A stretch of 64,000 bases of DNA, from the NCBI RefSeq assembly GCF_030384885.1, contig NZ_CP128613.1; one strand, written 5' to 3'. The notes beneath the pieces are model-generated. The model saw nothing but the letters and a program-made list of their open reading frames with translations. It was not told the DNA's origin and did no database searches. Shown piece by piece: positions 13,028 through 13,058 of the stretch. Source of the stretch: Escherichia coli. Lineage in GTDB: Bacteria; Pseudomonadota; Gammaproteobacteria; Enterobacterales; Enterobacteriaceae. The position numbers and the translations under genes were made by a program. Numbering within the stretch: the first letter of the stretch is position 1; every line of letters starts with the position of its first letter.

Positions 13028-13058
13028 TTTACCTCAAGTTAACTTGAGGAATTATACT
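13028..13058 (+). promoter_or_regulatory. soxS promoter with SoxR operator
   Basis: 18-bp perfect palindrome CCTCAAGTTAACTTGAGG at 13032-13049 between a -35-like TTTACC (13028-13033) and -10 TATACT (13053-13058); 19-bp spacer typical of MerR-type promoters. Confidence 0.85.

Follow-up and report, generated by a model that had tools for sequence, protein, structure and literature searches.

The window, a stretch of 64,000 nt of Escherichia coli DNA (contig NZ_CP128613.1), carries the divergently oriented genes soxR (12556-13020, minus strand, 154 aa) and soxS (13106-13429, plus strand, 107 aa). Both ORFs score above the NCBIfam equivalog cut-offs, SoxR with 247.6 bits to TIGR01950 (cut-off 116.9) and SoxS with 228 bits to NF007584 (cut-off 174). 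SoxR also matches the structures PDB 2zhg/2zhh with E = 1.3e-99, and the cluster cysteines C119, C122, C124, and C130 are all present in the CX2CXCX5C motif. The order of the locus, pdeC, soxS, soxR, ryjA/sraL, and ghxP, is the same as in K-12. Start codons of both genes are located within an 8-nt perfect inverted repeat, CATAAATC / GATTTATG, at 13018-13025 and 13101-13108; the start context GATTTATG is common to soxR and soxS, possibly by chance. Convergent to soxR, the sRNA sraL/ryjA (12423-12563, plus strand; Rfam RF01408 with 153 bits) runs 8 nt into the 3' end of that gene. Between ghxP and sraL, at a distance of some 40 bp upstream of the Rfam match to sraL, there is a perfect palindrome of 14 bp, AAAAGTATACTTTT (12371-12384). 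Elsewhere in the window, Rfam matches above the gathering score were obtained for a lysine riboswitch (56871-57067, plus strand), sRNA STnc430 (54827-54976, plus strand), and two copies of naRNA4 (5099-5170 and 42993-43063, both on the minus strand).

The region between the two genes contains the soxS promoter with the SoxR operator. The soxS -35 hexamer TTTACC (13028-13033, plus strand) agrees with TTGACA at 4/6 positions and has the soxR start codon 7 bp upstream, and the -10 hexamer TATACT (13053-13058, plus strand) agrees with TATAAT at 5/6 positions and is marked as such in Table S2 of PMC12825309. The spacer TCAAGTTAACTTGAGGAAT (13034-13052, plus strand) was counted as 19 bp, the distance given in the preliminary description, and the perfect 18-bp palindrome claimed there for the soxS promoter was also recovered: it is the SoxR box CCTCAAGTTAACTTGAGG, at 13032-13049 and without strand, as found by explicit counting of bases. 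In the repeat search it consists of two 9-nt arms with gap 0, and it is not extendable, the bases on either side being A/A. Its position, described as inside the spacer and exactly between the hexamers, has to be corrected. The first two bases of the box, CC (13032-13033), are the final 2 bp of TTTACC, and its end stops 3 bp (AAT) short of the -10 hexamer. The dyad centre at 13040.5 is accordingly not the spacer centre (13043.0) but a point 2.5 bp upstream of it.

TTTACC and TATACT at 19 bp are the top-scoring plus-strand hexamer pair of the intergenic region when spacers of 15-21 bp are scored. The soxS promoter is missing from the standard promoter scan because that scan takes spacers of 16-18 nt only; the hexamer pairs were rescored at 15-21 bp for this analysis, and the omission, a limit of the spacer range, was rejected as evidence against the promoter. 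The soxS transcript probably starts at G 13067 (plus strand) with a leader of 39 nt, as inferred from the stretch marked in the plain-text Table S2 of PMC12825309. Directly downstream of the -10 hexamer, CCCCAAC (13059-13065) resembles the SoxR half-site CCTCAAG at 5/7 positions as read from the sequence. It probably corresponds to the “partial SoxR site” of PMC12825309, whose mutation left binding unchanged. The region has what is expected of a SoxR-dependent promoter of MerR type, namely the box at 18/18 positions, the 19-bp spacer, an operator between and overlapping the hexamers, a divergent soxR, and a downstream soxS (AraC/XylS family, MarA/Rob subgroup). The hexamers and their 19-bp spacing agree with PsoxS as published (PMC12825309; PMC9303308; PMC4411124), and PMC4411124 quotes the same sequence as the SoxR box of E. 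coli. Together with flanking SoxR and SoxS above their family cut-offs, this bears out the earlier naming of a soxS promoter with a SoxR operator, and all testable elements of the MerR-type architecture, described as intact, hold.

The same DNA carries a promoter for soxR on the minus strand. Its -10 hexamer TATAAT (13051-13056, minus strand) is a 6/6 match and overlaps the soxS -10 by 4 bp (13053-13056), and its -35 hexamer TTCGTT (13075-13080, minus strand; score 8) is listed in Table S2 of PMC12825309 and stands at 18 bp from the -10, a near-optimal spacing. TCGTTA with a 17-bp spacer was also considered as the soxR -35 and was dropped in favour of TTCGTT and 18 bp of the published construct. 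The probable soxR transcription start, inferred from the plain-text Table S2 of PMC12825309, is G 13043 (minus strand), which falls in the right arm of the box. The arrangement is that of a bidirectional promoter, with overlapping -10 hexamers on opposite strands and marked starts about 23 bp apart, where 10-23 bp is expected of such promoters. From the start at 13043, the soxR leader is 23 nt long, and its sole Shine-Dalgarno-like sequence is GAGG, 11 nt before the AUG, which the operator supplies through its left arm, read as the complement. GAGG may serve as the ribosome-binding site of soxR. A paper of 2026 treats PsoxS/soxR as a bidirectional promoter with a shared -10, and the sequences in its Table S2 do not differ from the window (PMC12825309). 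The spacing in the soxS direction is called there “a sub-optimal 19 bp”, which “is not the case” for soxR (PMC12825309). The minus-strand TATAAT drives soxR, and the site is the bidirectional PsoxS/soxR, in agreement with published work. The earlier interpretation is supported as right yet incomplete, as the divergent soxR promoter on the same DNA went unmentioned in it.

Another explanation considered was that the palindrome arose by chance or has a structural role (as a cruciform or an RNA hairpin, for instance) unrelated to binding of a transcription factor. The window has two perfect 18-bp palindromes of any sequence; the mean number in shuffles was 0.32, and at least two were present in 7/100 shuffles. 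Such palindromes are therefore not very rare in 64 kb, and palindromy by itself was rejected as proof of function. The other one (38470-38487, inside AAAGCCGGATGATCATCCGGCTTTTTT) looks like the hairpin of an intrinsic terminator and is followed by a T-run, and it was counted in favour of this explanation. Significance has to be sought in the particular sequence and its surroundings, and both speak against chance here. CCTCAAGTTAACTTGAGG has a single match in the 64-kb window even when up to 2 mismatches are allowed, was matched in 0/100 shuffles, and equals the published SoxR box; it also stands between soxR and soxS in a hexamer register conserved in more than 100 species. No T-run follows it. 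According to the published starts, the soxS transcript does not include the box and the soxR transcript includes no more than about half of it, so an RNA hairpin is impossible; a hairpin or terminator role was rejected on these two grounds, the missing T-run and a palindrome never transcribed as a whole. A chance or purely structural origin of the palindrome can be given practically no weight.

Functional data come from work on the identical K-12 sequence, on which binding, soxS activation, and soxR repression were shown (PMC12825309); distortion of the DNA and activation by oxidised SoxR only are likewise taken from the literature on this sequence. The complete palindrome is needed for SoxR binding, and its mutation abolishes binding (PMC12825309). 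In vitro, SoxR at this single site strongly activates soxS and simultaneously blocks soxR (PMC12825309). In the constructs of Table S2, TTTACC is mutated in “soxS down” and TTCGTT is changed to TTGACA in “soxR up” (PMC12825309). These data also bear on another reading, in which the site would be an operator for soxR autorepression only and soxS would be activated through some other element. It agrees with the location of the soxR start within the box, and SoxR covers this start and part of the soxR -10 (PMC12825309). Repression of soxR also remains when the soxS -35 is destroyed, and direct occlusion is therefore the cause (PMC12825309). Strong soxS activation nevertheless proceeds from the single site and is abolished by mutation of TTTACC, and the second, partial site has no influence on binding (PMC12825309). 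A purely repressive role of the operator is hence hardly credible, and the site is best read as one operator serving both directions.

Alignment with the intergenic region of K-12 soxRS, the check proposed in the preliminary description, gave 126/126 promoter bases identical to MG1655. Taken as a whole, then, that description stands in sequence, spacing, and identity and fails in the placement of the palindrome. The soxR-soxS intergenic region has 0/85 differences from K-12, whereas the flanking coding sequences differ by 2.5-3.5%; similarly, sraL has 0/141 differences, with neighbouring genes diverged by about 3%. SoxS is identical to the K-12 protein (107/107 aa), its gene having 8 substitutions that are all synonymous, while SoxR is identical at 152/154 positions, with two non-synonymous changes (T38S and G74R) among 13 substitutions in soxR. 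With a 115-bp promoter query, 5,418 of 5,420 matching E. coli records had at least 99% identity. Positions 1-25000 of the window match E. coli 2013C-4282 (NZ_CP027579, starting at 3,138,000) at 100% identity. Over these 25 kb the complete genome that ranks next reaches only 98.6%, most others being 95-99% identical, and the strain therefore belongs to a fairly divergent lineage of E. coli. In E. coli E138 (NZ_AP022351), an IS1X4 element (2200-3075 of the locus examined) separates the SoxR box from the soxS -10, with a 9-bp target duplication, GAGGAATTA, equivalent to window positions 13046-13054. As the element parts the -35 and the operator from the -10, soxS of E138 is probably uninducible or transcribed from the IS1 end.

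The exact 18-mer of the SoxR box was found in at least 120 species-representative genomes, while about 4 matches would be expected by chance in 298 Gb if equal base frequencies are assumed. Among the matches listed, 119 loci were usable, 58 of them linked to soxS and 61 without soxS. Each locus was oriented by whichever hexamer pair scored higher at 19 bp, a choice that slightly favours this register; the TAnnnT matches that this choice would produce by chance were estimated at about 2/61, against 50 observed. In all 58 soxS-linked loci among the matches listed, TTTACC and TATACT stand at the same register as in E. coli. In the loci without soxS, again among the matches listed, TT[G/T]ACC is present in 55/61 and TAnnnT at the 19-bp register in 50/61, so that TAnnnT stands at this register in 108/119 loci overall. 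No locus among the 119 usable matches listed had TAnnnT at a spacer of 14-18 or 20 bp. Adjacent soxR homologues (within 120 bp) are all divergent and on the -35 side, in 58/58 soxS-linked loci and in 36/36 of the others among the matches listed. Sources of these loci include Vibrio, Shewanella, alphaproteobacteria, and actinomycetes, and the box with the 19-bp register is therefore a conserved unit. Its conservation well beyond enterics is already in the literature (PMC4411124), and the tabulation across species re-derives it. The register is kept in species without the shared -10, which points to activation as the conserved function and speaks further against an operator of autorepression only.

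SoxR of this strain has S38 and R74, while K-12 has T38 and G74. Residue 74 in the homologues of the 58 soxS-linked species among the matches listed is G in 35, S in 19, A in 1, and K in 1, with 2 unaligned; R74 was seen in none of these 58 homologues and looks derived within E. coli as judged from this comparison. S38 is common, occurring in 21/58 of the same homologues among the matches listed. Such differences from K-12 raise the question of an intact promoter with an altered switch, e.g., soxS partly constitutive through S38/R74 and a consequent efflux-mediated drug tolerance. Besides the two substitutions themselves and the absence of R74 from the 58 soxS-linked homologues among the matches listed, this would accord with a speculation that the T38S/G74R pair raises SoxS expression (PMC4317672). 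The pair is, however, a recurrent natural one in clinical isolates, susceptible and highly resistant alike, and the fully susceptible isolate ZE72, with a levofloxacin MIC of 0.016, carries it (PMC4317672). The pair is thus not sufficient for a phenotype and alone is no sign of constitutive soxS; S38/R74 as resistance mutations were rejected as unsupported. The frequency of S38 among homologues also speaks against an altered switch. Over the soxRS segment, 632 E. coli records reach an identity of at least 99%, so that a near-identical allele, as judged from the segment as a whole, is widespread. The cluster cysteines of this strain are the same as in K-12, and so is the C-terminus, where known constitutive SoxR mutations lie. 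A switch altered in this way is considered improbable. There is a slight chance, rated barely higher, that with the R74 allele the switch might have another set-point or basal leak and, separately, that the enteric box may be constrained by SoxR binding, the overlap with the -35, and soxR translation together.

The region is almost certainly the native soxR-soxS control region of E. coli, in which one SoxR operator serves a bidirectional sigma-70 promoter, and nothing contradicting this turned up in the comparisons of sequence, conservation, and literature. The present analysis covers the sequence, its geometry, the gene identities, the identity to K-12, and the cross-species register; the same behaviour of the switch would be expected in this strain with its S38/R74 SoxR. 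In the established model, which is adopted here, SoxR, a MerR-family protein with a [2Fe-2S] cluster, would occupy the 18-bp palindrome as a dimer in both redox states. The 19-bp soxS spacing, about 2 bp too long and out of phase, would keep basal transcription low. Reportedly, a spacer-deletion experiment on the K-12 soxS promoter was made by Hidalgo and Demple in 1997, in which basal activity rose and SoxR became a repressor. Oxidation of the cluster by redox-cycling compounds, superoxide stress, or NO would bend and untwist the operator DNA, and the hexamers of the distorted operator would then be aligned for sigma-70 RNA polymerase, soxS would be switched on, and SoxS would activate its regulon. 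The mechanism of SoxR is put by analogy with MerR in PMC9303308, and in the SoxR-DNA crystal structure the DNA is bent and twisted and the -10/-35 spacing shortened (PMC4551924, citing Watanabe 2008). In the opposite direction, the minus-strand TATAAT with the 18-bp spacer to its -35 would support soxR transcription. The soxR start is inside the operator, so bound SoxR would block it.

The soxS/soxR control region, which is intact in this strain, is already known and has been characterised in full, and its value is in annotation only: the soxRS switch for oxidative stress and multidrug tolerance is present, and its cis-regulatory DNA is intact. As the promoter DNA is identical to K-12, any soxS-related phenotype would have to come from the SoxR variant or from elsewhere, and not from the promoter; S38/R74 of SoxR would be the only source of any small strain-specific effect.

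The closest known system is PsoxS/soxR of E. coli K-12 (b4062-b4063 intergenic), with the same 85 intergenic bases, 126 aligned bp, and gene order; the hexamers, the 19-bp spacer, and the divergent soxR promoter are as in the published constructs (PMC12825309), and differences are confined to the coding flanks. MerR/PmerT of Tn501, CueR/PcopA, ZntR/PzntA, and BmrR/Pbmr likewise have a dyad operator between and overlapping the hexamers and an over-long spacer of 19 bp. They share with SoxR a divergently encoded regulator and activation by untwisting or bending of DNA, not by recruitment of polymerase (PMC9303308; PMC4551924). SoxR differs from these systems in its signal, a one-electron oxidation of [2Fe-2S] in place of metal or drug binding, and in its target product, which is a second transcription factor, SoxS, and not a resistance operon. 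Non-enteric SoxR promoters (Stenotrophomonas mfsA and the Pseudomonas and Streptomyces regulons) have the same box, 19-bp register, and divergent soxR (PMC4411124), but they drive effector genes directly, without SoxS as an intermediary. Among the matches listed, the -35 of loci without soxS is mostly the stronger TTGACC (36/61), whereas it is TTTACC in enterics (58/58), and the shared -10 of enterics, AATTATACT, is not conserved in the non-enteric SoxR promoters.
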